This document shows, in pieces, positions 1-58,409 of a stretch of DNA of 59,591 nt. The notes beneath the pieces are model-generated. The model searched no databases, had not been told where the DNA came from, and was given only the letters and a program-made list of their open reading frames with translations. The position numbers were made by a program, and so were the translations under genes. The stretch lies in the IMG/VR virus record IMGVR_UViG_3300028823_000151; one strand, 5' to 3'. Within the stretch, counting starts at the first letter, position 1. Each line of letters begins with the position of its first letter. This DNA comes from a virus.

Positions 1-144
1 AAAAACAATTTTTCTAACTGTTTTCCACTGTTCGCATTAAGTTCTCTGCCAGCTATTTGATTTAATTCATCTTGTAGATCGTACCTTAAATCATCAAGTT
101 GCATTCCTGTTTTGTACAGCTTTTCTTTATCAACCCTTACACCT
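1..144. repeat. terminal overlap, left copy (identical to 59448..59591)
   Basis: Base-by-base comparison of the first and last 144 nt shows them identical. Confidence 0.95.
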
Positions 145-797
145 GTTCTTCTCATTTGTAAAAGCAATGGAAACAATCTCATCTCTATGTCGTATACATT
201 CATTAAGTTTTGATCTTCCAATAATCTTTTTTGTTTTTGAAAAACTTTGTAAGTAAGTAAAGCATCTTGTGCACCATAAGGTGCAACAACTAATGCTGGC
301 AAAGTATACAATATTTTATTGTCAACCCTACCTTTAGGAAACTCTATACCGTTATGAATCATATACTCCTTAATATCCCTATAGTTTTTTCCAATACCTA
401 AATATTCTTCACCCAAGGAATCTAAACTGTAAGTTAATTTATATTCATCAATAAGTGGTTCAGCTATTTGGACATCATTATATACACCATTAACAGGTAT
501 TCCTTCATAATTTATTAACCAATCTAAGTCGTATAATCCATTGGCAAATATTTTATGATTGTTAGAACTTAACTGATCAATAATATATTTACGATTTAAA
601 TTAGCTTTTTCAGGAGTCACATCAAAATGATTTATTGGATAATATTCTGAAAGTTCTCCATTAGAAAAGGAAACTCCAGTAACGTATCCATCTTTACGAT
701 AGACACCTGGACCCTTTTCTTTTAGTAAAGGGTCCTTTGATTCTATATCAACTGCTATTTCTTTATCACCTTTATATTGATAATAGCTTAACTTCAT
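1..797 (-). CDS. DNA polymerase I family (PolA-type), N-terminal 3'-5' exonuclease part; same gene as 58388..59591, joined across the circular junction (about 618 aa in total)
   Basis: My minus-strand translation from the ATG at 797 (AAGGAGGA upstream) reads MKLSYYQYKGDKEIAVDIESKDPLLKEKGPGVYRKDGYVTGVSFSNGEL... DIE is the ExoI DxE motif. The stretch I translated by hand (797 down to about 650) has no stop; I did not verify the rest of the frame down to position 1 codon by codon. The ATG at 104 equals the ATG at 59551 and is in frame (797-104=693). The ORF is missing from the track because it runs off the window edge. Confidence 0.85.
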   Translation of the reverse strand, partial: MKLSYYQYKGDKEIAVDIESKDPLLKEKGPGVYRKDGYVTGVSFSNGELSEYYPINHFDVTPEKANLNRKYIIDQLSSNNHKIFANGLYDLDWLINYEGIPVNGVYNDVQIAEPLIDEYKLTYSLDSLGEEYLGIGKNYRDIKEYMIHNGIEFPKGRVDNKILYTLPALVVAPYGAQDALLTYKVFQKQKRLLEDQNLMNVYDIEMRLFPLLLQMRRTGVRVDKEKLYKTGMQLDDLRYDLQDELNQIAGRELNANSGKQLEKLF

Positions 798-1255
798 CTT
801 AGAAATTCCTCCTTTATATCAAATATTTCTAAAAGGTTTTTTACAGTATCAACACCTATTTTTCCTTCCCATTTTGTATAGTCATTGTGATACTCTATAT
901 CGTAGATCACTACAGGAATTTTAAATAGATGCATATACTTTAAACATTGATCACAAGGACCATGAGTAACTAACATAATAAAGTCACTTAGATCAGTATT
1001 GTATCCAAGATTTTTAAAGCAATCGAATATCGCTCTTGGTTCAGCATGAATAGCCCAACATCCATCTTGTTGCCATTCATACTCTTTTCGTACACATTTT
1101 TCACATGGAACTTCAGCCCCTCCATGACCTACTCCAACAATCTCACCTGTATTTTTATACATTAAGACTGCACCTACTTTTTTCTTAAGACATTGGGATG
1201 TTTCTGCCATAACCTTTGCAAGCTCTACAGCGTCTAAAAACTTTTCCTTATTCAT
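794..1255 (-). CDS. deoxycytidylate (dCMP)/cytidine deaminase family zinc enzyme
   Basis: Carries HAEPRAI (HAE catalytic/zinc motif), HGPCDQC (PCxxC) and CLKKKVGAV. GGAGGGG lies upstream of the ATG. The gene overlaps the hydroxymethylase gene by 8 nt. Confidence 0.85.
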   Translation of the reverse strand: MNKEKFLDAVELAKVMAETSQCLKKKVGAVLMYKNTGEIVGVGHGGAEVPCEKCVRKEYEWQQDGCWAIHAEPRAIFDCFKNLGYNTDLSDFIMLVTHGPCDQCLKYMHLFKIPVVIYDIEYHNDYTKWEGKIGVDTVKNLLEIFDIKEEFLR

Positions 1256-2072
1256 ATTCCCCTCCTATGTATCCTATGTGTTTAAATAAAGTTTGACTAT
1301 ATAATTCTAATAAATAGTCATCACACCCCTTTTCAAATTCAGAACGTTTAAATTCAGAGATACCTATTAAATTATAAACTTTAGATAACTTTTCTTTTAT
1401 AAGAAGTAAATTTCTTTCGTACATGTGAAGACTACCAGTCTGATGATTATAGTTTCCTAGTTTTATGTCATAGTTTGAACGTAACTCCTTAAGCATCTTT
1501 AATTGTATTAAACAAAAGAAAGGAACATCATAAGGTAAACCATACCAAATATCTGAAGACCTCATCTTAACAAATAAATGTAGTTTCCCTCCTCTTATAA
1601 AAAATTGTAAAAACATTGTACACGGATTGTCATTACTAGGATGAGCATTTTCTCTGTTATATATTGTCATAACAGCTTTCTTGCTGTCCTTATTTTGTAA
1701 CAACATTTCCCTTGCATATTCAAACTGAGTGTAGTTGTGATGGTTTCTATCGTGTAACAATAGTTTTCCATAGTTACTAAAGATTGTTCTTCCATCATCT
1801 GAAACCTTGTTCCAGAATTTTGAATGCTTAGAAATTTCTTTTAGAAAAGGGCTTCCTGAAGTATAGAATTCTAATTCCCCTTTTAAATAATCTATAGACA
1901 TATCCCTACAAGTTGCGAAACATTTTTTAGGCTTTGTCAAAGTGAAACTATAGTCTAACAGTTCAAAAACCTTTTCTCCTTTTCTGTTTAATATACTATA
2001 GTCAAAATCATTGTACACTTTATCCATTAAGCAACAATAAATTTTATTAAAATCATTCTGAACTATCTTCAT
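1248..2072 (-). CDS. deoxypyrimidine-monophosphate hydroxymethylase, thymidylate-synthase superfamily, T4 gp42-like
   Basis: GELEFYTSGS (cf. T4 gp42 RELEWYKSKS), NPCTMFLQFF (catalytic Cys), KMRSSDIWYGLPYD and TGSLHMYERN (cf. VGSLHVYSRH). The ATG at 2072 with GGAGGGG 6 nt upstream is preferred over the TTG at 2075 used by the track. Confidence 0.8.
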   Translation of the reverse strand: MKIVQNDFNKIYCCLMDKVYNDFDYSILNRKGEKVFELLDYSFTLTKPKKCFATCRDMSIDYLKGELEFYTSGSPFLKEISKHSKFWNKVSDDGRTIFSNYGKLLLHDRNHHNYTQFEYAREMLLQNKDSKKAVMTIYNRENAHPSNDNPCTMFLQFFIRGGKLHLFVKMRSSDIWYGLPYDVPFFCLIQLKMLKELRSNYDIKLGNYNHQTGSLHMYERNLLLIKEKLSKVYNLIGISEFKRSEFEKGCDDYLLELYSQTLFKHIGYIGGEYE

Positions 2073-2141: not shown

Positions 2142-2759
2142 TCATTCATTACTTTTTTCCTCCCTTATGTCTGGGGTGACTGGTTTTCCTTCATATTTAG
2201 GCTTCTCTGTAGGATACAGTCCATGGATTCCAAGACGACCTTCCCAAAATTCTCTGCCCTTATTAAATTTTTTCTCACACTCTATAATTCTACTGCTTAA
2301 AATTTGAGCGTATCTTTCTATTGGTCCATAGATATATCTATTTCCTAAAGTATGTTCTTCAAAACAATATAAGTATGCTTCCATTTCATCAGACAATTTA
2401 AAAAGAAGTAATTGATCTTCCGTTAAGATATTTTCTATACCTTTGTCTGACCAAGGTTTAAGTTCTTCAGGAAGTGTTTCCTCTTCAAGTACACTCCAAG
2501 CTTCTTTTGTCTTTTCATTTTTGTTTCGTATCAGCCTATTCATATCGCCTGTAAAGGTCTCTGCAAAATCATGATTCATAAGTATAAATAAAATGTCCTC
2601 ATTTATTTCTACTCCAAACTCTTTACAAAACAAATAGAACAACGTGGCAGTTCCGTGTCCATGTTCGCATAGATTTTGTGGTCTTAAAACAAATTCCATT
2701 TCAAATCTTTTGATTGAAATCATTGTTTTTCTTTTGTCTAAATAATTTTCGATATTCAT
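2142..2759 (-). CDS. HD-domain 5'-deoxynucleotidase, YfbR-like
   Basis: RPQNLCEHGHG...LMNHDFAETFTGD...KLSDEMEAYLYCFEE parallels E. coli YfbR (ENVSEHS...YHDASEVLTGD...KQADALCAYLKCLEE). AAGGAG SD present. Confidence 0.75.
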   Translation of the reverse strand: MNIENYLDKRKTMISIKRFEMEFVLRPQNLCEHGHGTATLFYLFCKEFGVEINEDILFILMNHDFAETFTGDMNRLIRNKNEKTKEAWSVLEEETLPEELKPWSDKGIENILTEDQLLLFKLSDEMEAYLYCFEEHTLGNRYIYGPIERYAQILSSRIIECEKKFNKGREFWEGRLGIHGLYPTEKPKYEGKPVTPDIREEKSNE

Positions 2760-2761
2760 AT

Positions 2762-3829
2762 TTACTCCTTTATTAGTTTTGATATATGTGGTTTTAGTTT
2801 ACCTATTTTGGAAAACTCAATTAAATTATTGTACAAAGGTTCTTTAGGATGTAACTTCTGTATTTTTTCAACTGTATGTATACAGTCGCCATAAAAATAT
2901 TCCTTACCCCAGTAAGGATATAAACCTACACGAAAACTTCTTTGACTACATAGAACACATGAAATAAGATCTTCTCTATATCCTTCCGCAAGTAGTGCTC
3001 TAACCTTTTGAAACTTTTCACCTTGCCAAATATCAAGTACATGTTCTTCGTTAACGTTACCTAAGTCTATACACTTAGCACCATTACTACAACAAATATC
3101 TACGATTCCATCATAACCTATTGTCATATATTTGTAGGGTTCTTTACATACTTTTCTTAATGGAAAGTCCTGTAATTTTGAACCTGTATATTTTTCCCAT
3201 TGGGAAAGTTTTAGGTTGCCTCCCCAATTGTGCATACGTCTTGTAACGTTACCATCACAATTAAATATGTCACTTTCGTCTGTTAAGATAATTGTTTTAT
3301 GTTTATAACCTTTATAAGAAAAAGCATTAACGTTGTCTTTATAATAGTCATAAACTTGTATTCCTTTTATTTCTAAAATTCTTTTGTTTCTTTCTAGTTC
3401 ACCTATAAAGAAATCCCTTTGTGCCTTACTATAAAAATCTGTTTGAGCATAATTAAGACCCTTGTCAAACAAGTCTATAAATTCAAATATGTTTTTACTT
3501 TTATAGACTTCAGTATTTGTTATTATAAGTATCTGTGCCTTTGGCATTTTTTCTCTTATAATACCTATGTACTCTCCTACATTCTTATGTAGAGTTGGTT
3601 CACCTTGTAAAGAGATTGATATACGTTTTGTTTTTTCTGTCAGGTTATCTACAATATTCAACAAAGTTTCTTTTGTTATTCTACCAGTAGAAGCTTGTGA
3701 CCTTCCACAGAAAGAACAATTAAGGTTACATCCTCTTACAAATTCTATACGAACCTGATTTGGTTCTGTAAAAACAAGTAGATTATGTTTCCTTAATTCT
3801 GCGACATGCTCCTTATCATACATTTCCAT
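2762..3829 (-). CDS. radical SAM enzyme with C-terminal SPASM/twitch-like Cys-rich domain
   Basis: VRGCNLNCSFCG is the CX3CX2C radical-SAM cluster motif. The C-terminal VCKEP...GIVDICCSNGAKCIDLGNV...ISCVLCSQ resembles an auxiliary Fe-S (SPASM) domain. Confidence 0.85.
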   Translation of the reverse strand: MEMYDKEHVAELRKHNLLVFTEPNQVRIEFVRGCNLNCSFCGRSQASTGRITKETLLNIVDNLTEKTKRISISLQGEPTLHKNVGEYIGIIREKMPKAQILIITNTEVYKSKNIFEFIDLFDKGLNYAQTDFYSKAQRDFFIGELERNKRILEIKGIQVYDYYKDNVNAFSYKGYKHKTIILTDESDIFNCDGNVTRRMHNWGGNLKLSQWEKYTGSKLQDFPLRKVCKEPYKYMTIGYDGIVDICCSNGAKCIDLGNVNEEHVLDIWQGEKFQKVRALLAEGYREDLISCVLCSQRSFRVGLYPYWGKEYFYGDCIHTVEKIQKLHPKEPLYNNLIEFSKIGKLKPHISKLIKE

Positions 3830-3831
3830 AG

Positions 3832-4689
3832 TTACCTTCCGTTATATTTTCTAAACTTTACTTTTTGATTTCCAGTGTAAGCATTAAGATACTTAACATA
3901 CTTTTGATATTCACACAACCAATGTTCAACTTCCCTTAAGGTTATTTTTTCTTCTGGAAAGTATATTCTAAATTCTTCTTCCATTACTTCCCTTACAACT
4001 ACTGCATCAGGCAACCAATCTCTTTGTTTTATTCTTACAGTAGGATAACCAAACCTTATAAGGCTCATTCCTTGTCTTGCCCCAGGACCCATGTTTGCAT
4101 AGGTATTTTTATCGGTTGGATTAAAGTAGTCTGTGTATTCAAAATCACAAGCATATTCGTATGCCATAAAACCACCAACACCAGGAAATTGTTTTAGAAA
4201 ATCTACAAGCCTTTCCATAGAGTTTTCTTTAATAACTTCTTTTATATAATCGTTAGCTTTTAAACTTTCAATTAAAAAGAATGGAGCTTCATACGTTTCT
4301 AACCAACCACCAGGTACTCTTGGATTTCTTATAAAGCATGAAGAAAATAATTTTTCCCCTTCTTCTTTTCTACTACTAAGAAAATCTTTTACTTCAGATA
4401 AATTGTCCAGTTTACAGTTTTCTTTTATTCTACAGAATGTAGAATATGTAGAAATAAACCTGTATAAAATTATTAAATCCCATCTTTCAAAGGGAAGTAT
4501 GTTTTCTATTAACCACTTTGTACACTTATCGTATTGACGAAACACATTACAGAAAAAGAAATTTTGGAATATCTCATCCTCAGTCCAAGGAGCTGGCATT
4601 CCTTCTTCCTTTAATTTGTAAATCTTATGTCGTTCAATAGCCGTATCTAAGAAGTGATTAAAGTGTTCAGAATTAAAATGGTTATTCAT
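3832..4689 (-). CDS. putative DNA base hypermodification protein, alpha-glutamyl/putrescinyl-thymine pyrophosphorylase (aGPT-Pplase)-like
   Basis: The N-terminal ERHKIYKLKEEGMPAPWTEDEIFQNFFFCNVFRQYDKCTKWLIENI matches my recollection of the conserved start of this family (..R..I...R..G...PWT.D.IL....FCN.YR..DR.....). This rests on memory only and was not searched. Confidence 0.5.
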   Translation of the reverse strand: MNNHFNSEHFNHFLDTAIERHKIYKLKEEGMPAPWTEDEIFQNFFFCNVFRQYDKCTKWLIENILPFERWDLIILYRFISTYSTFCRIKENCKLDNLSEVKDFLSSRKEEGEKLFSSCFIRNPRVPGGWLETYEAPFFLIESLKANDYIKEVIKENSMERLVDFLKQFPGVGGFMAYEYACDFEYTDYFNPTDKNTYANMGPGARQGMSLIRFGYPTVRIKQRDWLPDAVVVREVMEEEFRIYFPEEKITLREVEHWLCEYQKYVKYLNAYTGNQKVKFRKYNGR

Positions 4690-4706: not shown

Positions 4707-5624
4707 TTATTCATATCCTTTTAAAAATGTATTAGTTCCAAGTATAATTTTCATACCTTCTTCAGCTGGTATATAAGGTTCCTCGCCTTCAGGTAAAAAT
4801 CTTTTCCAGTCTATTGTACAATCTAATCTTTCCTCATCCCATAGTCCGTTGTTCTTTATTTTAAGATCAACATACCCAGGAAATTCTTTACATAATTGTT
4901 TAGCGGATTCAGATTGTGCTTCTACTGTTCTTGTTTCTGAACATCCACCTTTGTATCCTGTTCCAGGGTCACCACAGCACCAACGAGCATTGCTTAAAGA
5001 CTTGTAACCTTTTGACAATAATTTTAATTGTACATAACGATCACTCATAAAAGGAACAGGCATTTCATTAATCTTTATACCTTCCTTTATTAAAGTTGGA
5101 ACATGGTAACAAACGAATCTTATAATTGGAATATTCTTAGGAAACATGTATTTAATTCCTTGGCTTCCAAGCTTCAATGGCAGTCCAACTATTGGGTACT
5201 CCTCATTACAAAGTTGTATACTTTCATAAAGTATTTTATTAAAGCAATCGTTTGCAATAAAGTCTTCATGCCTTGAAGTATATTTTGAAGATAGATTTTC
5301 ATCTCTGAAATACAAGTTTATATCATCGTCAATTATAAATAGGTATTCAGTAAAATTTTCCTTTGCTATATCAAAACACTTTTGTCTTTTATCTGCGATT
5401 GTAGAATCATCAGGTACAACAAAGACAGGTGCATAATTATCTACAGCTTTTCTATAGTCACTTGCTTCACTTTCTCGAACTATAATTTCGTATAGATAAT
5501 TAAAGCTAAAAGGGTCTATATGTTTCCATATACCTATTCTTTTTTCTATAAGATGTATCCTATTTCTAGATGGAATACTTATAGAATAATTTAAGTTTGT
5601 TAACTTATTATAAATTTCACTCAT
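4707..5624 (-). CDS. GT-A-fold glycosyltransferase-like protein (possible DNA-base glycosyl/other group transferase)
   Basis: YSISIPSRNR near the N-terminus and LFIIDDDINL (DxD) are GT-A hallmarks. They resemble phage IPSYKR-type/TET-associated glycosyltransferases. The assignment is weak. Confidence 0.4.
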   Translation of the reverse strand: MSEIYNKLTNLNYSISIPSRNRIHLIEKRIGIWKHIDPFSFNYLYEIIVRESEASDYRKAVDNYAPVFVVPDDSTIADKRQKCFDIAKENFTEYLFIIDDDINLYFRDENLSSKYTSRHEDFIANDCFNKILYESIQLCNEEYPIVGLPLKLGSQGIKYMFPKNIPIIRFVCYHVPTLIKEGIKINEMPVPFMSDRYVQLKLLSKGYKSLSNARWCCGDPGTGYKGGCSETRTVEAQSESAKQLCKEFPGYVDLKIKNNGLWDEERLDCTIDWKRFLPEGEEPYIPAEEGMKIILGTNTFLKGYE

Positions 5625-7038
5625 TCATAGACCTCCTAAAAATACTTTCGTAACCGAATTGTGAATTAGAATGTACAATATGTAAATTCTTTTTTGCTCT
5701 TGTTAAAGCTACATATAAACATCTTAATTCAGAATCCAAGGCTTCTACATTTCGTTCAAGGTTATTGTCAATAGTTTTAGTTACATCTAACAACAAAACA
5801 ACATTGTCAGCTTCACCACCCTTTACTCCATGTATTGTATTCACTTCACAATTTGTTTTAGTAACATCAACTTTGTTTTTAAACAAGTCTTTAAAATAAG
5901 TTTTCTCGTTTATATCAAAGTTCAGAGAATAAAACCACGGATCTTTAATGTTTATAATGTCTCTTAAATAAGGTTTAAGTGATAGGTCAGTATAAATTTG
6001 TTCAGGATCATACTTCCTATGTTTTTCATAAATCCTTACAGCGTTATACTTTTTCATATCAACACTATACCTGTGCTTATATTGAAAAGTCATTCCTAAC
6101 TCCCGTAACCTTTTTCCATATATAGATAAGTGATAATTATTTCTGGCTAGAAAGTAGTAAGATTCCTCATTGTTTATAGGTATCTCATCTACTTTATTAT
6201 AAAAATAAATTTCACCACCTTCTTGTACAGGGTCAAAGATTTTATCTACACGATTAGATATTTGTTTTGAAAATAGTTTAGAAAAATTTAGTATCTTTTG
6301 TCTAAGTCTGTACGATTTGTCCAACACAATGTTTTCACTATGTTTTGAAAGATTTAAAAAATGTTTTATATCAGAGCCTGACCATTCATATATTGCTTGG
6401 TCATCATCCCCTGCTATATAAACTTTGTTACAATTTCTAAAAGCTACTTCACAAAATTTCCATTGCAAGGATGTAAGGTCTTGTGCTTCATCAATTATAG
6501 CTACTTGAACAGGTAACGGTTTATCTTTTTTAATAAACTCTACAATTAAATCATCAAAATCCTTTACTCCCATTTCAGTTTTAAATCTTTCATAGTTATT
6601 GGAAACAAAATTTACTTTCTTTACATCTAAATCCTCCAACAATATTTCAGCGGTCCTTGGATTATTTTTCTTTAGAGAAACATAAAACAAATATTTATCA
6701 TCGTTATTGATAAAGTCCTCTGTGTAGTAACCTACAAAGTTCATACCCATTGCCCTTGAAAACTCTTTATAATTTTTCTTGGAAATCATTTCATACCTTG
6801 ACATTCCAAGGTCTCTAAAAGCTAATGAATGAATAGTTCTAAAATAAGGTAAGTCAGAATCTTTATAACCAAACTTTTCAGTAGCTCTATCTCTTCCTTC
6901 ATAACTTCCTTTCTTTGTAAAAGAAACAAAGGCAATTTTATCTGAATCATAATCATCCAAAATGTCAGAAAGTAAGTTCAATAAGTACGTTGTCTTTCCA
7001 CACCCTGGAGCTCCAAAGATCATTGTTGTTTCTTGCAT
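5617..7038 (-). CDS. superfamily 1 (UvrD/Rep-like) DNA helicase
   Basis: FGAPGCGKTT (Walker A), AIIDEAQD (motif II), AGDDDQAIYEW (III), TIHGVKGGEADNV (V) and LYVALTRAKKNLHIV (VI). The ATG at 7038 immediately follows the stop of the upstream gene; the track start at 7056 is a TTG. Confidence 0.85.
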   Translation of the reverse strand: MQETTMIFGAPGCGKTTYLLNLLSDILDDYDSDKIAFVSFTKKGSYEGRDRATEKFGYKDSDLPYFRTIHSLAFRDLGMSRYEMISKKNYKEFSRAMGMNFVGYYTEDFINNDDKYLFYVSLKKNNPRTAEILLEDLDVKKVNFVSNNYERFKTEMGVKDFDDLIVEFIKKDKPLPVQVAIIDEAQDLTSLQWKFCEVAFRNCNKVYIAGDDDQAIYEWSGSDIKHFLNLSKHSENIVLDKSYRLRQKILNFSKLFSKQISNRVDKIFDPVQEGGEIYFYNKVDEIPINNEESYYFLARNNYHLSIYGKRLRELGMTFQYKHRYSVDMKKYNAVRIYEKHRKYDPEQIYTDLSLKPYLRDIINIKDPWFYSLNFDINEKTYFKDLFKNKVDVTKTNCEVNTIHGVKGGEADNVVLLLDVTKTIDNNLERNVEALDSELRCLYVALTRAKKNLHIVHSNSQFGYESIFRRSMNE

Positions 7039-7039
7039 A

Positions 7040-7498
7040 TTACCTGTCCAGTCCAAACAAAGGTAGAGGATCCCTTAACATAACTCCACACTTTAAAGGG
7101 GATATAAAATCATTTGTACTATTATAATAAAAAGTTTTACCTCTTCTATCTATTAAAAGGTAAGTCACTAAAGATTTATCTTTGCTAAACTTAATTCCAT
7201 AAAGTCTTATTGGATATCTCACACTATAAGAATTAAATTTTCTAGGTCTATTCTTTTTGTGAAAACCTTTCTTATGATAATCTAAAAACAAATATTGGTA
7301 TGTTAGATACTCATAACTATTTCCAAGATACTTAACTCCGCTTGGATTATATTCAAACTGTTCACAAGTATCGTACTTAAACATTTGTCCTACACGTTCT
7401 GAAAGTTCATCAAATGAAGGGATAAAAACTTCACCTTTAATAGATACAGTAAACAAAAGAACTATAGTTATAATTGTAAAAAATATTATTTTCTTCAT
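7040..7498 (-). CDS. secreted or membrane-anchored hypothetical protein
   Basis: N-terminal MKKIIFFTIITIVLLFTVSIKG looks like a signal/anchor sequence. The gene is packed tightly between the primase and helicase genes. Confidence 0.55.
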   Translation of the reverse strand: MKKIIFFTIITIVLLFTVSIKGEVFIPSFDELSERVGQMFKYDTCEQFEYNPSGVKYLGNSYEYLTYQYLFLDYHKKGFHKKNRPRKFNSYSVRYPIRLYGIKFSKDKSLVTYLLIDRRGKTFYYNSTNDFISPLKCGVMLRDPLPLFGLDR

Positions 7499-7509: not shown

Positions 7510-9129
7510 TTAAAAATCTTCGATAAAGTCTGAAAAGTCTGGTTCAAAACTTTTTTCTACAGGTTCAAAGTAATTAAGTAATTCCTTCTTAACTGTAACC
7601 ACTCTAAGTTTTTTCCTTTTATCTTTTCCATTAGATTCTGTATTTACATCCTTATTCATTTCCGCTTTAAAGTCGTCTTTCAATAAACGATATACTTCTT
7701 GTTTATCAAAATTAAGCCCACGCTTTTTATCATTAACGTACACAACTAGATCCCTCATACGGAACCAATATTCTCCGCTAGAAGAATCAAAAAACACACG
7801 ACCATCTTCAATTTGTCTTCTGTTTTCAGCCGGGACTCTTCCAGTAATAAACTCGAATACACTAAGCTTCAATAATATTATTGGAGAAGTATCATCAGCT
7901 TCATCTATAGTTTTTACGTCAACTTCTTTTAGAGCTTGGTTAACCTTTTTAAACCATTCGTGTTGCTTTAACTTTGTAGGAATTTCATAAAGTTCCCTCA
8001 TACACAATTTAATGAAAGTGTCCTGTTTCAATAATTCATCCTCACTTTTAAAGACTAACCTTGTATATTTTTCTTGATCCTGTCTTCTAACTTCCCATTC
8101 ATAATAAGGTTGTTTAGATTTATATTGTGTTAGAACTCCACACTCTATAGTTGAAAAGTATCCGTCATCTTTTCCAACACCAAATTCCCTTTTACGACAT
8201 TCGTTCTTATTACAATAATCTGAACATGGAAAGTCATTACATTTATACTCGTAATCTCTTTTTCGTAAAGATGAAACAATTGTTTTTTCGACCTCCTTTT
8301 CTGATAATGGATATTTTAAATTTCCATTTGCCTCTAATAACTGTTGTTCAAAAAAGTCTTCATCCTTTTTCTTTAAATAAACACCTAACGAAAACAGAAA
8401 AATATTTCTACCTGAATTAAAATCCAACGGATCTAAAATTGTTATTGACTGCAAACAAGGTGGTGCGTCATTATAATCTAGATCATGTAGAAATTCTCTC
8501 ATATCCTTTACGGTTGTCATCTTTCCTTTTATATAACTAAGAGCTTCAGGTAAAGACAATTCTTGTCCTTCTTTTATTGCGACTTGTTTTGTCTCCTTAT
8601 GATTGTAGTAAGGTAAGTTAATTGCATTACCTATTTCTCCATCCCTTAGTTTAGTTTGCTTAGGAAAAATTTCAACAGTCCTATTTGTTTTGTTTTTAAC
8701 GTAAGTATCTATTGCTAATATAGAAGCCATACTTTTCATTATCTTTACAGCTTCTTTAGGACTCTGAGCTTGTTTGAAAAAAGAATACAAGTGCAATCCT
8801 CCACTTTTACTTTTGAAAGGAACCAATGGAAATTTATGTTTGTCTATAGCTTCAATAAAAGTTATCATGTCCTCATTATATATGTCAATATCTATAGCTG
8901 AGAAAAAACATTTACTGTCTTCAGATATGGGGATTATTCCCAGTCCTTCTTTACCTTCTAAATGTTTTTTATAATCTGTTATAGTTATTAACTTATCTTT
9001 TACAGTACGATACTCCCCTTGAAGCTTTCCATTTACCTCGTCTTTTCCGTACACTAATTTTAAATAATTGTTTTTAGAACCGGAAAATAATTTTTTAAAT
9101 TCCTCAACATCATGTGAATTTAGTGACAT
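7510..9129 (-). CDS. archaeo-eukaryotic primase (AEP/prim-pol) superfamily DNA primase with Cys-rich C-terminal region
   Basis: FFSAIDIDIY (DxD), SKSGGLHLYSFF (sGxGxH) and EIFPKQ. A later segment, CNDFPCSDYCNKNEC, looks like a zinc-binding region. Confidence 0.7.
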   Translation of the reverse strand: MSLNSHDVEEFKKLFSGSKNNYLKLVYGKDEVNGKLQGEYRTVKDKLITITDYKKHLEGKEGLGIIPISEDSKCFFSAIDIDIYNEDMITFIEAIDKHKFPLVPFKSKSGGLHLYSFFKQAQSPKEAVKIMKSMASILAIDTYVKNKTNRTVEIFPKQTKLRDGEIGNAINLPYYNHKETKQVAIKEGQELSLPEALSYIKGKMTTVKDMREFLHDLDYNDAPPCLQSITILDPLDFNSGRNIFLFSLGVYLKKKDEDFFEQQLLEANGNLKYPLSEKEVEKTIVSSLRKRDYEYKCNDFPCSDYCNKNECRKREFGVGKDDGYFSTIECGVLTQYKSKQPYYEWEVRRQDQEKYTRLVFKSEDELLKQDTFIKLCMRELYEIPTKLKQHEWFKKVNQALKEVDVKTIDEADDTSPIILLKLSVFEFITGRVPAENRRQIEDGRVFFDSSSGEYWFRMRDLVVYVNDKKRGLNFDKQEVYRLLKDDFKAEMNKDVNTESNGKDKRKKLRVVTVKKELLNYFEPVEKSFEPDFSDFIEDF

Positions 9130-12710: not shown

Positions 12711-14264
12711 CTATTTAGGTAAATTTACTTCATTCCTTGAGTCTGATGTGTCAAATAAATATCTGTATTCAACACCAACAGCAAAGGCAATATTCTTTTG
12801 TATGTACCTTTTGTTACCAGCAGCGTTTCGCTTAGGAAAATAATGTAAGTAACCACCTGAACCTGTTAATGATAAACATTTAAAAGGTGTTATCTTAATT
12901 CCACCTGAAATTGAAACGCATGGAATCTGTGCATCTAAATCACTATAAGTCTTTTTATTTGCACCTCCATAATAATAAGCTGTACCAGCTCCAAACTCTA
13001 GCCAGTCAAAAGGTTTTAACTTTAAACCAAATTGTCCGTCCCAGGCATCACTATAATTGTCATTATATCCCAGTATCTCACCACCTTCATCAGAATAAGA
13101 ATCAGCGAGCTTAACAAAATAATAATGACCTTGTATACCTACTGCAAGCCAACCAGTTGGACTCCATTCAATTCCAAGCCCAACCAGAGAAGGTAAATTG
13201 TAACTTCTACGTCTTCCATCCACAAACATACCTGCAAAACTTTTTCCATCCTTAACACTTTCTTTCCAAGACAGAACTGTTTGAGATTCGTAACGCAAAC
13301 CAATATTTAAACTTTCTACTGGCCTCCAGTGTAAACCTATAATTGCCCCTATTCCATGGGCTTCTTTACTTGCGTCTAATTCCACTAACTCAGTAGTAAT
13401 ATTTGCAGGGTTATTTACTTCATCTGCAATTTGATCAGCAACCATACATCCATCACTAACAGCAACTGGAGTTATTCGATACTTTGTCCACCCTGAATAC
13501 TCGTTCTTAGCGTATATGTATCTTATACTGAAAGAAGTAGCGAAAACTTTTTCAATAATTTGATAAGCTGTACCTATTGTCCCAGCTAAATACATACTGC
13601 TACCTTTAACTTCACCACCTAACCAATCAACTTTAGTGTTTGAAAAATCTAAATGCTGCTCAACATACTTCATTGAATTAAAGTCAATGGATGGATCATT
13701 CGGATTAAAAAAGTCAGATCCAATAATTGATCTTATTGTAGGCGCAAGCCAATATTCAGTAACAGACATGTGTGCTTTTTCAGCTAACCCTTTGTGTGCC
13801 TGTTCAAAAATAATATCCTGTGCTTGATCTGAGACCTTTGGACAATTTTCATCCAACATAGGAATACCATCTTTGTAATGTCTTGTACCACCACCAGCAG
13901 GAATTGTGAACGATGCAAACAATGACCAACGCCCTTTCTTAAAAACAAAGTAGGCATTTGGTATTGCTGGAACAGGTTCATTAGAACCGTAAGTCTTACC
14001 CTTGTATTCCATTCCACTGTAAGATACTGTGATACTTTGTACACTTACATCAAAGTGAATTCCATCTTTCATAAATGCTGTGCCTGCTGGATTAAAATTT
14101 GCTATGTCCGCCCCTTCTGTAGAACCTATCCTTATAGGATTCATTAAGTAGTTAGCAGACTGGTTGGGCAAATAATCAATATTTGCCATTGCACGTTTCG
14201 TATAAATAAGTTGAGTTAATGTTGCCATAACTAAAGACAACAAAATAAATCGTAATGTAACCAT
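12711..14264 (-). CDS. outer-membrane beta-barrel protein, FadL/TodX (OMPP1) family-like
   Basis: The ATG at 14264 has a GGGGGG SD. Signal peptide MVTLRFILLSLVMATLTQLIYTKRAMA is followed by NIDY. The N-terminal NFNPAGTAF matches the NPAG hatch motif of FadL. The rest shows long alternating beta-strand patterns with Gly/aromatic girdles and a terminal strand AFAVGVEYRY. Confidence 0.65.
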   Translation of the reverse strand: MVTLRFILLSLVMATLTQLIYTKRAMANIDYLPNQSANYLMNPIRIGSTEGADIANFNPAGTAFMKDGIHFDVSVQSITVSYSGMEYKGKTYGSNEPVPAIPNAYFVFKKGRWSLFASFTIPAGGGTRHYKDGIPMLDENCPKVSDQAQDIIFEQAHKGLAEKAHMSVTEYWLAPTIRSIIGSDFFNPNDPSIDFNSMKYVEQHLDFSNTKVDWLGGEVKGSSMYLAGTIGTAYQIIEKVFATSFSIRYIYAKNEYSGWTKYRITPVAVSDGCMVADQIADEVNNPANITTELVELDASKEAHGIGAIIGLHWRPVESLNIGLRYESQTVLSWKESVKDGKSFAGMFVDGRRRSYNLPSLVGLGIEWSPTGWLAVGIQGHYYFVKLADSYSDEGGEILGYNDNYSDAWDGQFGLKLKPFDWLEFGAGTAYYYGGANKKTYSDLDAQIPCVSISGGIKITPFKCLSLTGSGGYLHYFPKRNAAGNKRYIQKNIAFAVGVEYRYLFDTSDSRNEVNLPK

Positions 14265-14281
14265 TGGAACCCCCCAATTTG

Positions 14282-14464
14282 TTATTTTCTCCAAACACGA
14301 ATTCCAATTCCAAAAACGATCCATCTAAAATAAACATACTTAGAATCTTCTACTCCGATGTGTTTTGCAATTGAAATTGTTGGAACAATGAATACTTCTT
14401 TGCACAGCTCATCATCCGTATACAAATTCCAAAACACAATCTTACTTTTTAGAAAGTGTTTCAT
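14282..14464 (-). CDS. hypothetical small protein
   Basis: Called only from packing and its 4-nt overlap with the upstream ORF. Confidence 0.35.
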   Translation of the reverse strand: MKHFLKSKIVFWNLYTDDELCKEVFIVPTISIAKHIGVEDSKYVYFRWIVFGIGIRVWRK

Positions 14465-15328: not shown

Positions 15329-15654
15329 ATTTGCCTCCTTTCAAAATCTGAAATTGTTGTTTCTTCACAGTTGTTACACAAAAAATTTAATCTTGCTAAT
15401 TCATATTCTTTGTTTGTAATTAACCAACCACAATTTTGGCATTGCCAAAATGAATTTCGTTCCTTCTTTTGTTCTTCAGACAATTCCATAAGAAATTCCA
15501 TTACTGTATCGTGATCAACTTTTGCAACTGCTTGTAAGTACTCGATCATAAACTCTGTACTTTTGTCGTGGAAGTCACACTCCTCTTTTGCCATTACTAA
15601 CTGAGCGTATTTCTCATCACTTATTTCCATACTATTCCTCCTTATACCGGCCAA
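15325..15654 (-). CDS. zinc-finger hypothetical protein
   Basis: AAGGAGG SD and the Cys pairs CQNCGW...CNNCE. Confidence 0.5.
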   Translation of the reverse strand: MAGIRRNSMEISDEKYAQLVMAKEECDFHDKSTEFMIEYLQAVAKVDHDTVMEFLMELSEEQKKERNSFWQCQNCGWLITNKEYELARLNFLCNNCEETTISDFERRQI

Positions 15655-16079
15655 ACGTAAGGTAAGTTTCGTTGAGTATCAGGCCACAAAGGTAAATAAA
15701 ATTCTTCATACTTAGCTATTAAGTTTGAACGATGAGCTTCAATAAAGTTATCATCTATCCAATATGGTTTAACAGGTTCATCATCGTTAACAAGTGTTAA
15801 TAAATATTTGTAATGTTTATAACATTTCTCATTTTTGTAACCTCGCTTAACCCATTCTAACATAATATCATATAAGTAAACTTTAATAAGGTATGATTCA
15901 TAACCCTTCCACATTTTAACAGCCGAGTGGTTTGCCCAACCGTTAGTTGTAAGTTTAGTCTCTGAAAGTAATAAACAACGAGCAATCTGTATAGCTTCAA
16001 CTCGTTGCTTACCTAACCGCCTATAATCAAGACATTCAGCAGTATTGGAAATATTGTGATCAGTGATAAATGTTTGCAT
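15642..16079 (-). CDS. putative pyrimidine-dimer DNA glycosylase-like (endonuclease V/Pyr_excise-like) protein
   Basis: MQTF...AECLDYRRLGKQRVEAIQIARCL...WANHSAVKMWKGYE...WVKRGYKN matches my recollection of a small family annotated this way. Not verified. Confidence 0.45.
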   Translation of the reverse strand: MQTFITDHNISNTAECLDYRRLGKQRVEAIQIARCLLLSETKLTTNGWANHSAVKMWKGYESYLIKVYLYDIMLEWVKRGYKNEKCYKHYKYLLTLVNDDEPVKPYWIDDNFIEAHRSNLIAKYEEFYLPLWPDTQRNLPYVWPV

Positions 16080-18609: not shown

Positions 18610-18683
18610 AGGTACTTTGGATCTATTTATAGCGGTTTACCTGTATTCCCTACAATTCTCGTAGCACACTTTAATAGCGTTGC

Positions 18684-18713
18684 CTCATCTGTCCCAGACG
18701 GCAGTTTATTTTA
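18684..18713 (+). repeat. 30-mer CTCATCTGTCCCAGACGGCAGTTTATTTTA, copy 1
   Basis: Identical to 52199-52228. Lies 186 nt from the start of the leftward gene 18268..18498. Confidence 0.9.
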
Positions 18714-18868
18714 GTACCACATGTAAACTAACGTGGGGCTTTATAACCTTGTCAGGGCGTTTATATGGACTATACCCCTATTATATATACATAGTTGTAC
18801 AATGTGTACAGTTATACAGGGTTTTTACCTTATATACTGTAATACAATAAGCCTAAACAGTACAGCCG

Positions 18869-48148: not shown

Positions 48149-48705
48149 TGGGTGAAATAGTTAGAATAACAGACTACTATGCAGAGGCTTTGGAATTATT
48201 CATAGAGCAATATAAAAATTCTACCAACTTGCAAGAAGTAATAAGATCATCAACACTTCAAGCTGATGATCTTGAAACAGCTATTTTTGAAGTTAGGGAT
48301 TTATTTTATATTGATACGGCAGAAGGAGAGCAACTTGATGTCATAGGAAGAGTACGGAATGAAGAAAGACTCGGTAGAAATGACAATGACTTTAGAGCAG
48401 CTATTCAACTAAGAATAAGTTTAAAAATAAGTGGAACCATAAGACAAATACAAAATGTACTTATAAGTTTTTATGGTGCAACTTACATTGACTATATTCC
48501 TGTCTATCCAGCAAAAGTTTTTTTAATAACGGATGCACAAATTCCAATACAAGCGTTAACCGAACTAACTCCAGCAGGTGTTGGAATATTATGCAGGGAA
48601 AGGAATGATGACGACAATCCAGTATTTGGATTTGAAGACGATGCTATTGATAATGTTTTTGCCGTAACACAAGACTTAGAATTTTTTGGGAAAGAGGAAA
48701 TATAA
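48148..48705 (+). CDS. baseplate / tail-fibre adaptor protein (XkdU/gpI-like)
   Basis: GEQLDVIGRVRNEERLGRNDNDFRAAIQLRI; also position after the J-like gene. Confidence 0.45.
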   Translation: MGEIVRITDYYAEALELFIEQYKNSTNLQEVIRSSTLQADDLETAIFEVRDLFYIDTAEGEQLDVIGRVRNEERLGRNDNDFRAAIQLRISLKISGTIRQIQNVLISFYGATYIDYIPVYPAKVFLITDAQIPIQALTELTPAGVGILCRERNDDDNPVFGFEDDAIDNVFAVTQDLEFFGKEEI

Positions 48706-49907
48706 TGGCAGGAAATTCACCAATAACTTTTTTTAGAGACTTAGTTGAAATAACAGGTGCTGAATTAGATATGGTAAATGATTTTGCTTATGTTAATAGA
48801 CCTGCAGAAGTCTCTAGAAACAATAGAGATAACATAATACCTTTAAATCAATTTATATCTTCTGTAGAAGAAAGTGCAGTTGTTCCTTTTTTAGAAAGAC
48901 TATTTAGACAATTTAAACTCTCTAATTTTGCTTATGTGCAAGTGGGAACTTCTTCATTAGCTACTACTAGAATAGAAGCAAGAGGAGATATTGTTTGTTT
49001 GACAGACACATCGGAGACAACTTCAAGCCTATTTAGGTCTACTGATAGGGGATGGACTTGGTTTGCACAAACTACTCCCACTGAAAGAATACAGGACATA
49101 GAACCAGGAGCAGGACAAGTTTGGGTCTTTGTTAGTAATGCTTCACCTTATGCTTATAGATCTACAAACGATGCAATAAGTTGGACCGCTGTTTCTGGAA
49201 TGCCAGTAGGAGAATACAGGTCAATATCTAATGACGGTGGAAACAATTGGTGTGCTTGTGGAATTTCAGGAGCAAAATTAGCTAATTCAACTGATGATGG
49301 AATTTCTTTCACAGCAAGAACTGAACCTGATTCAAATACAACTTTTGGTGATATACAACACTCCAGAAATTCTGGAGATAATGTTTGGATAGCAGTAGGT
49401 TCAAATTCAGTTAACGATAATGCTTTTGCTCGTTCTACAGATAATGGGACTACATGGTCTGCAATAGCAGTTCCTACAGGGCTGGGTTCCAATACTTGGG
49501 TAAGTGTAGACACAGATGGAGAAGGCAATTGGATGGCAGTTGCTGCGAGTGGAACAGCAAGTGAAAGGGTTGTGAGATCTACAGACAACGGATTAACTTG
49601 GTCTATACTAACATTACCTACAGAGTTTCAAGGAATTCATTTCAAGGTAAAGTATGACGATAATACTTGGATAATAACTACTTTCGATAAAGTAAAGATT
49701 ATTTATTCCTTGGATAATGGGATTAATTGGGAAGCTTCAACTTTTCGTAGATATAATGACCCTGCATACACATTACCAATTATAGGAATAACTTATACAG
49801 AAGGTGCATGGCTATTCTTAGCAAGTATATTTTTTATAGATCCCTCAGATGATGCTAACCCAACTAAGATATTAAGGTCATTAGAATTTCAAGAAGGTAT
49901 ATTTTAA
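48705..49907 (+). CDS. distal tail protein with six Asp-box (BNR) repeats, beta-propeller (sialidase/Ycf48-like fold); receptor-binding candidate, paralog 1
   Basis: RSTDRGWTW, RSTNDAISW, NSTDDGISF, RSTDNGTTW, RSTDNGLTW and YSLDNGINW are S-x-D-x-G-x-T-W boxes at roughly 50-aa spacing. Confidence 0.6.
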   Translation: MAGNSPITFFRDLVEITGAELDMVNDFAYVNRPAEVSRNNRDNIIPLNQFISSVEESAVVPFLERLFRQFKLSNFAYVQVGTSSLATTRIEARGDIVCLTDTSETTSSLFRSTDRGWTWFAQTTPTERIQDIEPGAGQVWVFVSNASPYAYRSTNDAISWTAVSGMPVGEYRSISNDGGNNWCACGISGAKLANSTDDGISFTARTEPDSNTTFGDIQHSRNSGDNVWIAVGSNSVNDNAFARSTDNGTTWSAIAVPTGLGSNTWVSVDTDGEGNWMAVAASGTASERVVRSTDNGLTWSILTLPTEFQGIHFKVKYDDNTWIITTFDKVKIIYSLDNGINWEASTFRRYNDPAYTLPIIGITYTEGAWLFLASIFFIDPSDDANPTKILRSLEFQEGIF

Positions 49908-49916
49908 GGAGGAGTT

Positions 49917-51125
49917 ATGGCAATAGATAGTTCCATACGTTATTTTAAGGATCTTACACAAATAGCTTCAGGAGATATTATAGGTGATCAACATTACCTG
50001 TACATTAATCGTCCAAATGAAACTGATCCAAATGACGTTGACAGTATAATTACAGTAGAAGAATTTGCTACTTCTATAGGAAGTATTGTAGTAAGACCAC
50101 AAGCAGAAAGATTTATCTATCAACTTCAAGCTTCTAATTGGATAAATGTTGATACTCCAGCTACTACTGGAGCGATACAAGTTGTTGAAGCTAAAGGAGA
50201 TATTTTCTGTGCCGCTGATCCAGACGGAACAACAACTAGCTTAATAAAGTCTACGGATAGAGGTTGGTTCTGGCAATTAAGAACTACCCCAACAGCTGGT
50301 ATTCAAGGAATTTCTGCAGGCGCAGGACAAGTCTGGTTAATAATAACAGGAAATGAGTCTCCATACGTTTACAGATCTACTGATGATGCAGAAACCTGGT
50401 CCCCTGTTTCTGGAGTTTCTGCAGGAACTTATTTTGGTATTGACAATGATGGTGGAGACAATTGGTGTATATGTGGAATAACAGATTCTAAACTGGCTAA
50501 CTCAACTGACAATGGAGTTTCTTTTACAACAAGAACCGCACCTGATGCAAACGCACAATACTATAAAGTTCGACATTCAAAAATTGCATCCGACGATGTA
50601 TTTGTAGCCACAGGAGTAAATCCTATAAATACAAATGCATTTGCTAGAACTACTGATAATGGAGCAACATGGAGTGCAGTAACAGTTCCGCTTGGAACTC
50701 AAACAAATATTTGGATTGGATTAGATAGTGATGGAGAAGGTAATTGGATTGCAGTTGCTGCGAGCGGAACATTAAGTGAAAGAGCTTTAAGGTCTACTGA
50801 TAATGGTGCCACTTGGTCTATATTAACAACTATTCCTACTGAACTTCAAAGTGGTTTTAGAGAAATAAGGTATGCAGAAGGAATGTGGATGATTCTATCA
50901 GTAGATAATACTAGAGTTATCTATTCTTTAGATGGAGGGGATACATGGTTAGCTTCAACCTTTCCATTATTTAATTCCTCTTCTACTGGAAATGAATTTG
51001 ATGGAATAGCTTTTTCAAATGGTGCATGGGTAATTTGTACTAGAGGATTATCTCCTGACCCTTCAGATAATTCTAACGCAACTAAAATACTTAGGTCTTT
51101 AGAATTCCAAAAAGGATTATTCTAA
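49917..51125 (+). CDS. distal tail protein with six Asp-box (BNR) repeats, paralog 2
   Basis: KSTDRGWFW, RSTDDAETW, NSTDNGVSF, RTTDNGATW, RSTDNGATW and YSLDGGDTW. It shares its N-terminus and its C-terminal ATKILRSLEFQ.G.F with paralog 1. Confidence 0.6.
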   Translation: MAIDSSIRYFKDLTQIASGDIIGDQHYLYINRPNETDPNDVDSIITVEEFATSIGSIVVRPQAERFIYQLQASNWINVDTPATTGAIQVVEAKGDIFCAADPDGTTTSLIKSTDRGWFWQLRTTPTAGIQGISAGAGQVWLIITGNESPYVYRSTDDAETWSPVSGVSAGTYFGIDNDGGDNWCICGITDSKLANSTDNGVSFTTRTAPDANAQYYKVRHSKIASDDVFVATGVNPINTNAFARTTDNGATWSAVTVPLGTQTNIWIGLDSDGEGNWIAVAASGTLSERALRSTDNGATWSILTTIPTELQSGFREIRYAEGMWMILSVDNTRVIYSLDGGDTWLASTFPLFNSSSTGNEFDGIAFSNGAWVICTRGLSPDPSDNSNATKILRSLEFQKGLF

Positions 51126-52185: not shown

Positions 52186-52198
52186 AAAATTGTACTGG

Positions 52199-52228
52199 CT
52201 CATCTGTCCCAGACGGCAGTTTATTTTA
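52199..52228 (+). repeat. 30-mer CTCATCTGTCCCAGACGGCAGTTTATTTTA, copy 2
   Basis: Identical to 18684-18713. Lies 82 nt from the start of the leftward gene 51647..52117. Confidence 0.9.
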
Positions 52229-52295
52229 ACCCCACGTTAGTTTGTATGTCGGGATTTTATACTTTTATAGTGTTATACTATTACTAACAAAATTA

Positions 52296-58237: not shown

Positions 58238-58409
58238 CCTTTTTCTCCTTTTTGTTTTCGTTTAGCCAATCATAATCTATAGGACTATAACCTTCAAGCA
58301 TTCTTCTTTTAAAAATTCTATGTTTACATTTCTTACATTCATAATAGTTATGAACTCCAGAATACTTTACAAACTTGTATCTATGAATTAAACATACTCT
58401 ATTTTCCAT
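58230..58409 (-). CDS. 59-aa zinc-finger-like protein (below the track cutoff)
   Basis: My own translation gives MENRVCLIHRYKFVKYSGVHNYYECKKCKHRIFKRRMLEGYSPIDYDWLNENKKEKKDG*. It overlaps the polymerase stop by 22 nt and the next gene's start by 8 nt, and fills an otherwise unexplained 150-nt gap. Confidence 0.35.
   Translation of the reverse strand: MENRVCLIHRYKFVKYSGVHNYYECKKCKHRIFKRRMLEGYSPIDYDWLNENKKEKKDG

Follow-up and report, generated by a model that had tools for sequence, protein, structure and literature searches.

Which pyrimidine does a phage modify when its hydroxymethylase has the active site of a cytosine enzyme, while the surrounding genes are those of a thymine-type pathway? 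The question is raised by the virus record IMGVR_UViG_3300028823_000151, a stretch of 59,591 nucleotides that was analysed at its full length and is called the window below, and in particular by its gene for a homolog of thymidylate synthase (TS; Table 1). A conflict of this kind had been noticed in a first reading made from the letters of the DNA alone (the sequence-only reading). It proved to be real and stronger than stated there, given the recurring fusions of the TS homolog to a deaminase and the five gene types that are common to the window neighbourhood and to thymidine-hypermodification clusters.

Active site and fold of the predicted hydroxymethylase

The TS homolog has 274 amino acids when read from its ATG codon; a TTG start further upstream, at 2075, would give 275. 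Its catalytic cysteine (Cys151, in NPCTMF) and an aspartate 31 residues later (Asp182, in GLPYD) stand where the sequence-only reading had placed them, in columns that are invariant in the alignment. MAFFT aligns Cys151 with C146 and Asp182 with N177 of E. coli ThyA, the equivalents of C148 and D179 in T4 gp42, and HMMER also sets Asp182 on T4 D179 ('mrssdiwyglpyd' in the window, 'mrsndvvfgfrnd' in T4). An exchange of Asn and Asp at position 177 switches the preference between deoxyuridine monophosphate (dUMP) and deoxycytidine monophosphate (dCMP), according to mutagenesis cited in PMC13326640 and PMC8670742, and positions 177 and 147 give the best separation between TS homologs from modified and from unmodified metavirome contigs (PMC8670742).

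The prediction of a dCMP enzyme had been built on this one aspartate and is now backed by five diagnostic positions. In E. coli ThyA numbering, Asp148, Cys151, Thr152, Met170, Asp174 and Asp182 of the window enzyme are positions 143, 146, 147, 165, 169 and 177. At 143, 147, 165, 169 and 177, the window enzyme presents D, T, M, D and D, which are the residues of proven 5-hydroxymethylcytosine (5hmC) enzymes and are found both in T4 gp42 and in the homolog of Enterococcus phage VPE25. The same positions read D, N, N, D and N in the dUMP hydroxymethylases SP10 gp188 and ZC01 gp14 (thus Asn at 177 where the window has Asp); N, P, L, D and D in the dCMP methylase of Xp12; E, T, M, N and D in RB69 gp48 (a 5-hydroxy-dCMP synthase); and L, H, Q, D and N in E. 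coli ThyA. An acidic residue in the place of L143 is a mark of hydroxymethylases, related to water access and to a hydroxymethyl instead of a methyl product (PMC13326640), and the window enzyme has one at Asp148 (SNDNPC), as T4 does at D145.

The best sequence match of the TS homolog in the PDB is T4 dCMP hydroxymethylase (1b49, HMMER E 3.9e-20), whereas thymidylate synthases reached about 1e-12 in the same search. Its AlphaFold2 model (pLDDT 87.4, pTM 0.87) matched in Foldseek the CMP hydroxymethylase MilA (TM 0.75, rmsd 2.2) and T4 dCMP hydroxymethylase (TMt 0.73-0.76), which bears out the alignment at the level of the fold; ordinary TS structures were also among the matches. T4 gp42 (1b49/1b5e/6a9a) and MilA share with the window enzyme the TS fold, the catalytic Cys, the acidic residue at 143, T147, M165, D169 and Asp177, and, like it, they are without the TS-type C-terminal tail. 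Identity to T4 gp42 is only about 31% and, unlike gp42, the window enzyme is coupled, and in relatives fused, to a deaminase and lies before a family A polymerase. A true thymidylate synthase of the ThyA kind was considered and rejected: L143, H147, Q165 and N177 all differ in the window enzyme, the C-terminal segment that closes over the folate does not align, and the NCBIfam TS models scored far below their cut-offs.

We compared the 120 closest homologs from a collection of 5.8 billion proteins. Over 13 active-site positions, 117 of them are identical to the window enzyme, and the other three deviate at one position each (W at the C146 position, V at 165, S at 147). The catalytic Cys is kept in 119 homologs, D169 in all 120, and so is Asp177; Asp182 is therefore a feature of the family and not a product of chance. 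Since the active-site residues match those of T4 gp42 and VPE25, and since 117 of the 120 homologs keep the pattern, we accept 5-hydroxymethyl-dCMP (5hm-dCMP) as the predicted product: the window gene very probably encodes a folate-dependent dCMP hydroxymethylase, with dCMP as its substrate.

It is very improbable that the product carries something other than a hydroxymethyl group. Asp177 is common to hydroxymethylases, to dCMP methylases of the Xp12 type (with which the deaminase would yield dT nucleotides) and to flavin-dependent 5-hydroxy-dCMP synthases of the RB69 type, and the order of TS homolog then deaminase is that of Xp12. Nevertheless, Xp12 has N143, P147 and L165 against D143, T147 and M165 in the window, and the Asn at D169 that marks the newly found 5-hydroxy-dCMP synthases (PMC13326640) is absent from the window enzyme, as it is from all 120 homologs. 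RB69 gp48 also differs from the window enzyme at E58, W80 and Y209.

Among cultured phages, the closest TS homologs are those of the Enterococcus phages VPE25 and VFW and of the Lactobacillus phage ATCCB (35-38% identity), which have an identical active-site pattern and a DNA glycosyltransferase nearby. These glycosyltransferases are T4-like beta-glucosyltransferases, and the regions read in these phages hold no adjacent deaminase, HMUDK_hel, radical SAM or HD gene. VPE25 DNA is bisulfite-resistant and is cut by PvuRts1I, which indicates glycosylated 5hmC (PMC4999554). Modified cytosine has been demonstrated by experiment in both VPE25 and VFW.

Coupling and fusion to a deaminase

The gene of the TS homolog overlaps by 8 nt (ATGAATAA) that of a deaminase with HAE and PCDQC motifs, whose stop codon in turn overlaps the start of the DNA polymerase gene (ATGA). 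The matches of this deaminase in the PDB are S. mutans dCD, PBCV-1 and T4 Cd. The overlap had been taken as translational coupling, and the link turns out to be stronger: 48 of the 120 homologs are single proteins of 400-460 aa that contain both enzymes, with the TS domain N-terminal and the deaminase domain C-terminal. The H-x-E (catalytic Glu) and C-x-x-C (zinc) motifs are intact in the aligned deaminase domains of these fusions, and each of these 48 C-terminal domains has 38-47% identity to the window deaminase. Such fusions are seen in contigs L002 (3025-4269) and L003-L006 and among proteins P0070-P0120, where cluster P0114 has 1268 member sequences. Related contigs of phages have the pair, or its fused form, between the helicase and PolA, and in L018-L020 the hydroxymethylase-deaminase module stands directly before PolA. 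The hydroxymethylase and the deaminase immediately downstream of it form a fixed two-enzyme module just before the phage DNA polymerase. A tblastn search with the deaminase in cultured phages returned no match at 1e-8, and its identity to the Xp12 deaminase is about 24%.

A 2024 preprint from New England Biolabs reported a strong enrichment of dCMP-deaminase-family genes on metavirome contigs with modified cytosine; for 70% of the genes on such contigs, a TS homolog, in most cases with Asp177, is no more than 3 kb away, and PolA is among the commonest neighbours (bioRxiv 10.1101/2024.12.05.627091). In the same study, more than 60% of 56 active deaminases preferred 5-methyl-dCTP (5mdCTP) and/or 5-hydroxymethyl-dCTP (5hmdCTP), seven deaminases yielded 5-hydroxymethyldeoxyuridine (5hmdU) in E. 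coli engineered for 5-hydroxymethyldeoxycytidine (5hmdC), and the authors proposed that Xp12-type 5-methylcytosine (5mC) phages obtain dTTP via deamination of 5mdCTP (10.1101/2024.12.05.627091). According to a second preprint, dCMP deaminases accompany TS-plus-glycosyltransferase pathways.

A PF00383 deaminase at most 3 kb from an Asp177 TS homolog, one of the marks of the mSCD class of modified-cytosine deaminases, is present in the window, where the two genes overlap. Like the window, the mSCD class and the Xp12 pair have the deaminase in cis with an Asp177 TS homolog near PolA, and these phages have no separate TS, a single TS homolog feeding both pyrimidines via deamination. In contrast, the characterised cases of the mSCD class are of the methyl type, with a canonical product (5mdCTP to dTTP), whereas the TS signature of the window is of the hydroxymethyl type, so that deamination would give 5hmdU. 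In Xp12 (L021, 44377-46195), three adjoining and overlapping genes code for the TS homolog, a dCMP deaminase and a dihydrofolate reductase, the TS homolog coming before the deaminase as in the window. Gene fusions occur in relatives of the window, whereas the words 'fusion' and 'fused' are absent from the text of the preprint (bioRxiv 10.1101/2024.12.05.627091), and we found no description of TS::deaminase fusions in the literature searched.

Upstream genes and thymidine hypermodification

A protein resembling the pyrophosphorylases of thymidine hypermodification had been pointed out in this neighbourhood, and it is indeed a member of the HMUDK_hel family (Table 1). Its relatives are found in SP10, ViI-like, PaMx11/Ab18-like and SH-Ab 15599 phages, and the cultured relatives that we recognised all belong to thymidine-hypermodifying groups (PaMx11/Ab18-like, ViI-like, SP10-like, SH-Ab 15599). 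In SP10, HMUDK_hel makes up the C-terminal half of gp186, a 5-hmdU DNA kinase, which explains the Pfam name. The family has an invariant REVEHWLCE(Y/F)xKY motif (window residues 251-265, with Cys259 and Glu260) that lines up with EVE..LC of the clade-2 transferase ZC01 gp9, a short motif matched by eye, and in the clade-2 transferase the conserved Cys and the neighbouring Glu are essential (PMC8989533). Because of this invariant Cys-Glu motif, essential in clade 2, the clade-1 HMUDK_hel protein is probably an enzyme, and we hold a passive, DNA-binding 'helical domain' to be unlikely. The profile-profile comparison of the HMUDK_hel family with the clade-2 transferase was not significant. With the AlphaFold2 model (pLDDT 93.6), Foldseek retrieved no significant PDB match, only weak OGG-like helix-hairpin-helix (HhH) glycosylases; therefore, no mechanism was transferred.

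Directly upstream of HMUDK_hel lies a TAGT-like glycosyltransferase (GT) gene, in the window as in contigs L001, L009, L010, L022 and L023, and the pair is conserved even in the more distant ones (L022, 7188-10196; L023, 7139-8912). A radical SAM gene adjoins HMUDK_hel in L001, L009, L010 and L022; in L022 this radical SAM/SPASM gene follows the GT-HMUDK_hel pair, and L023 has none. The radical SAM enzyme of the window has no BLAST similarity detectable to SP10 gp185, and its NCBIfam hits were all far below cut-off, so we assign no specific chemistry to it. The HD protein is related to E. coli YfbR (2paq, 4.2e-07), gave only weak matches in cultured phages by tblastn, and has counterparts after the dUMP hydroxymethylase in ZC01 and in the metagenomic contig L024; judging from its family and context, which also guide our assignments for the GT, HMUDK_hel and radical SAM proteins, it probably removes a canonical pyrimidine nucleotide.

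The block of HMUDK_hel, hydroxymethylase, YfbR-like HD, PolA and deaminase recurs in the thymidine-hypermodifying ZC01 and in L024, there with an Asn-type dUMP hydroxymethylase, a P-loop kinase and a clade-2 amino-acid:DNA transferase. More generally, the thymidine-hypermodification clusters of M6, PaMx11/ZC01, ViI, SP10, PhiW-14 and SH-Ab 15599 resemble the window in their clade-1 Pplase with EVE..LC and in the block of hydroxymethylase, HD, PolA and deaminase, and in SP10 and M6 a radical SAM enzyme adjoins the Pplase-like gene as it does in the window. Unlike these clusters, the window has neither the P-loop kinase nor the PF18724 transferase, and its hydroxymethylase has a cytosine pocket; ZC01 has a kinase where the window has the TAGT-like GT.

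The search for a P-loop 5-hmdU DNA kinase gave no kinase-family match among the early genes, and the only recognisable NTPase with a Walker A motif is the UvrD helicase, a second match to the motif falling in a 537-aa ORF at 12711-14324. The clade-2 transferase family (PF18724, ADDT) has no match in the window, whereas ZC01 gp9 matches it at 4.1e-27. Thus, of the genes by which thymidine hypermodification is recognised, the clade-1 Pplase (HMUDK_hel) is present in the window, and the kinase and the clade-2 transferase are absent. The genome contains no second TS-like region and no ThyX motif inside any ORF, in agreement with the sequence-only reading, which had noted the lack of a thymidylate synthase. 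It is likewise devoid of dNMP kinase, dCTPase and MazG/dUTPase-type genes, of a T4-type alpha/beta-glucosyltransferase, and of a gp1-type kinase and a gp56-type dCTPase. In the literature searched, we found no description of a cassette with a clade-1 Pplase, a GT and a radical SAM enzyme but no kinase, and this kinase-free cassette, whichever of the two bases it acts on, points to a modification chemistry so far uncharacterised.

The five gene types shared with dUMP-hydroxymethylase clusters might suggest the route established in SPO1, SP10 and M6 (PMC8989533), in which the deaminase makes dUMP and the TS homolog then hydroxymethylates it to enter the 5-hydroxymethyluracil (5hmU) pathway, the Asp being tolerated or compensated in the window. 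We give this explanation hardly any weight, as it is at odds with three co-varying positions (T147, M165 and D177 in the window, N147, N165 and N177 in SP10 gp188, ZC01 gp14 and L024), with a pocket identical to that of T4 gp42, with the Asn/Asp mutagenesis mentioned above (cited in PMC13326640, PMC8670742) and with the domain order of the fusions, where the TS homolog comes first and the deaminase second.

A proposed sequential route and its main alternative

While the residues of the active site, the fused proteins, the conserved gene order and the lack of TS and kinase genes are observations, the substrate of the deaminase, the base present in the DNA and each step of the cassette are inferences. 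Our preferred reading, to which we assign a probability of roughly 0.45, is a sequential route leading to 5hmU in DNA, with or without 5hmC. The deaminase would act on a hydroxymethylated cytosine nucleotide, most simply 5hm-dCMP, of which all or a fraction would become 5hm-dUMP. Through host kinases and the phage polymerase, 5hmU would then replace T in the DNA, whether or not 5hmC replaces C as well. A single TS homolog would thereby supply the modified pyrimidine or pyrimidines without a thymidylate synthase, in a scheme that would be the hydroxymethyl analogue of the one proposed for Xp12, where deamination turns 5-methyl-dC nucleotides into dT nucleotides. Once the DNA has been replicated, the enzymes of the upstream cassette (GT, clade-1 Pplase-like Cys-Glu protein and radical SAM enzyme) would decorate the hydroxymethyl base, while the YfbR-like HD hydrolase would deplete the competing canonical nucleotide.

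We count in favour of this route the recurring fusions, whose domain order (hydroxymethylase N-terminal, deaminase C-terminal) is the proposed order of the reactions, the lack of a phage TS, the 5hmU-type neighbours, the precedent of deaminases acting on modified C, and the handling of 5hmdUMP by host kinases (reported in PMC13458397).

Several points weigh against it. In T4, a dCMP deaminase is present along with the dCMP hydroxymethylase, and yet the DNA contains only 5hmC derivatives and no 5hmU, so that an adjoining deaminase does not have to use the hydroxymethylated nucleotide. TAGT-type transferases are known above all for their action on 5hmC, and the closest cultured phages with the TS type of the window (VPE25/VFW) have modified cytosine. 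In the in vivo screen of 90 TS-linked deaminases, only seven gave 5hmdU, and all seven were linked to methyl-type and none to hydroxymethyl-type TS homologs; about 40% of the active enzymes in that study showed no selectivity for modified C (10.1101/2024.12.05.627091). The best characterised of them, mSCD-B5, needs triphosphates (10.1101/2024.12.05.627091), so fusion to an enzyme that produces monophosphates would not help. Moreover, no determinant of C5 selectivity could be tied to the sequence of the window deaminase, and the preprint gives no sequence determinant of the preference for modified C (bioRxiv 10.1101/2024.12.05.627091).

The main alternative, a serious possibility although clearly below even odds, is that the locus works as in T4. 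The 5hm-dCMP would be incorporated as 5hmC only, and an ordinary dCMP deaminase would make dUMP for the host thymidylate synthase and so meet the high T demand of a genome with 31-36% GC. Coupling or fusion would then fix the split of dCMP between the two branches, as a covalent version of the T4 dNTP-synthetase complex, and the cassette of GT, HMUDK_hel and radical SAM would hypermodify 5hmC, a cytosine-based use of a Pplase-like enzyme that the sequence-only reading had offered as its alternative. Besides the precedent of T4, this explanation can draw on the best structural relatives of the deaminase, which are canonical dCMP deaminases, on the identical TS signature of VPE25/VFW, whose cytosine is glycosylated, and on PF20691 and phrog_842, both named for action on 5hmC. 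It can also draw on the enrichment of TS(Asp)-plus-deaminase contigs in cytosine-modified DNA, on the unselective deaminases, and on the lack, in the screen, of any 5hmdU producer linked to a hydroxymethyl-type TS (10.1101/2024.12.05.627091). However, fusions usually join consecutive and not competing steps, the phage genome codes for neither a TS nor a T4-like dCTPase or dNMP kinase, and the set of HMUDK_hel, YfbR-HD, PolA and deaminase otherwise goes with 5hmU chemistry.

With regard to novelty, the sequential route from dCMP through hm-dCMP to hm-dUMP had been called undescribed for phages, a claim that does not hold as written: the route is partly anticipated by the preprint on TS-linked deaminases (bioRxiv 10.1101/2024.12.05.627091). 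A natural hydroxymethyl-type system in which deamination to 5hmU feeds hypermodification was not found in the literature searched.

Genome organization

Bases 1-144 of the window are an exact repeat of 59448-59591. This terminal direct repeat of 144 nt identifies the window as a complete phage genome, assembled as a circle of 59,447 bp and with a GC content of 30-39%. No near-identical relative was retrieved among 50,697 cultured phage records (megablast with 12 kb of the window). The genes were assigned from ORF calls together with Pfam and PHROG profile searches, and those discussed above form an early operon on the minus strand, transcribed in the order primase, ORF, helicase, GT, HMUDK_hel, radical SAM, HD, TS homolog, deaminase and PolA (Table 1). 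The polymerase has 618 aa, and its gene spans the junction of the window.

Table 1. Genes of the early operon in order of transcription, with positions in the window and the profile matches or context of each.
Feature	Position	Strand	Match or context
AEP primase	7510-9129	-	first in the early operon
ORF without assignment	7040-7498	-	early operon, between primase and helicase
UvrD-type helicase	5617-7056	-	early operon
Candidate TAGT-like (GT-A type) DNA glycosyltransferase	4707-5624	-	PF20691 1.4e-07; phrog_842 2.1e-25
HMUDK_hel / clade-1 'aGPT-Pplase' protein, HhH glycosylase-like fold	3832-4689	-	PF18723 1.9e-45
Radical SAM enzyme with SPASM/twitch auxiliary-cluster domain	2762-3829	-	PF04055 1.6e-10; PF13186 1.8e-11
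YfbR-type HD phosphohydrolase (5'-deoxynucleotidase / dNTPase-like)	2142-2759	-	PF12917 3.6e-17; weak phrog_7076 'dATP triphosphohydrolase'
TS homolog, predicted dCMP hydroxymethylase	1248-2072	-	PF00303 2.4e-21
dCMP-deaminase-family mononucleotide deaminase, 153 aa	794-1255	-	PF00383 1.9e-13; phrog_174 2.6e-22
Family A DNA polymerase, N-terminal part	1-797	-	junction ORF rebuilt on the circularised sequence
Family A DNA polymerase, C-terminal part	58388-59447	-	PF00476 5.8e-61; junction ORF

The early genes also include a T4 endonuclease V-like pyrimidine-dimer DNA glycosylase at 15642-16079 (minus strand; PF03013, 3.3e-17). The 537-aa ORF with the second Walker A match (minus strand) corresponds to no Pfam or PHROG family; its sequence has the look of an outer-membrane beta-barrel protein, which may hint at a Gram-negative host. 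A 40-nt repeat with 90% identity is located at 18681-18720 and 52196-52235, the two points at which gene orientation switches, and could be a shared regulatory or terminator element. Two adjacent paralogous genes for 400-aa, probably tail-fibre-like proteins (48705-49907 and 49917-51125) have a 123-nt repeat in common with 78% identity (49491-49613 and 50706-50828).

Implications for phage DNA modification

Through hypermodification of their DNA, phages overcome restriction and CRISPR systems, and the pathways are a source of enzymes for epigenetic sequencing. To our knowledge, every pathway described so far begins with one of two bases, 5hmC or 5hmU, and the two kinds have been regarded as unconnected. 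At the locus described here, a hydroxymethylase of the cytosine type is joined to a deaminase and to genes that had until now been associated with thymine chemistry. The window enzyme adds to the dCMP hydroxymethylases, and the module and the cassette are variations of known phage DNA-modification systems. A broader proposal, which we consider unlikely as a whole, is that in a widespread clade of uncultured phages the hydroxymethylase-deaminase pair or fusion would make both 5hm-dCMP and 5hm-dUMP from dCMP, so that both pyrimidines would be hydroxymethylated without a thymidylate synthase, and that the sub-clade of the window would build its hypermodified base without a DNA kinase, by means of the GT, a catalytic clade-1 Pplase-like enzyme and the radical SAM enzyme.

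If the cassette acts on 5hmC, a Pplase-like transferase would for the first time be seen to use a cytosine substrate. If, instead, the deaminase accepts 5hm-dC nucleotides, 5hmU DNA could be obtained without a dUMP hydroxymethylase or a thymidylate synthase, and the natural fusions would be ready-made two-step catalysts and candidate 5hmC-selective deaminases.

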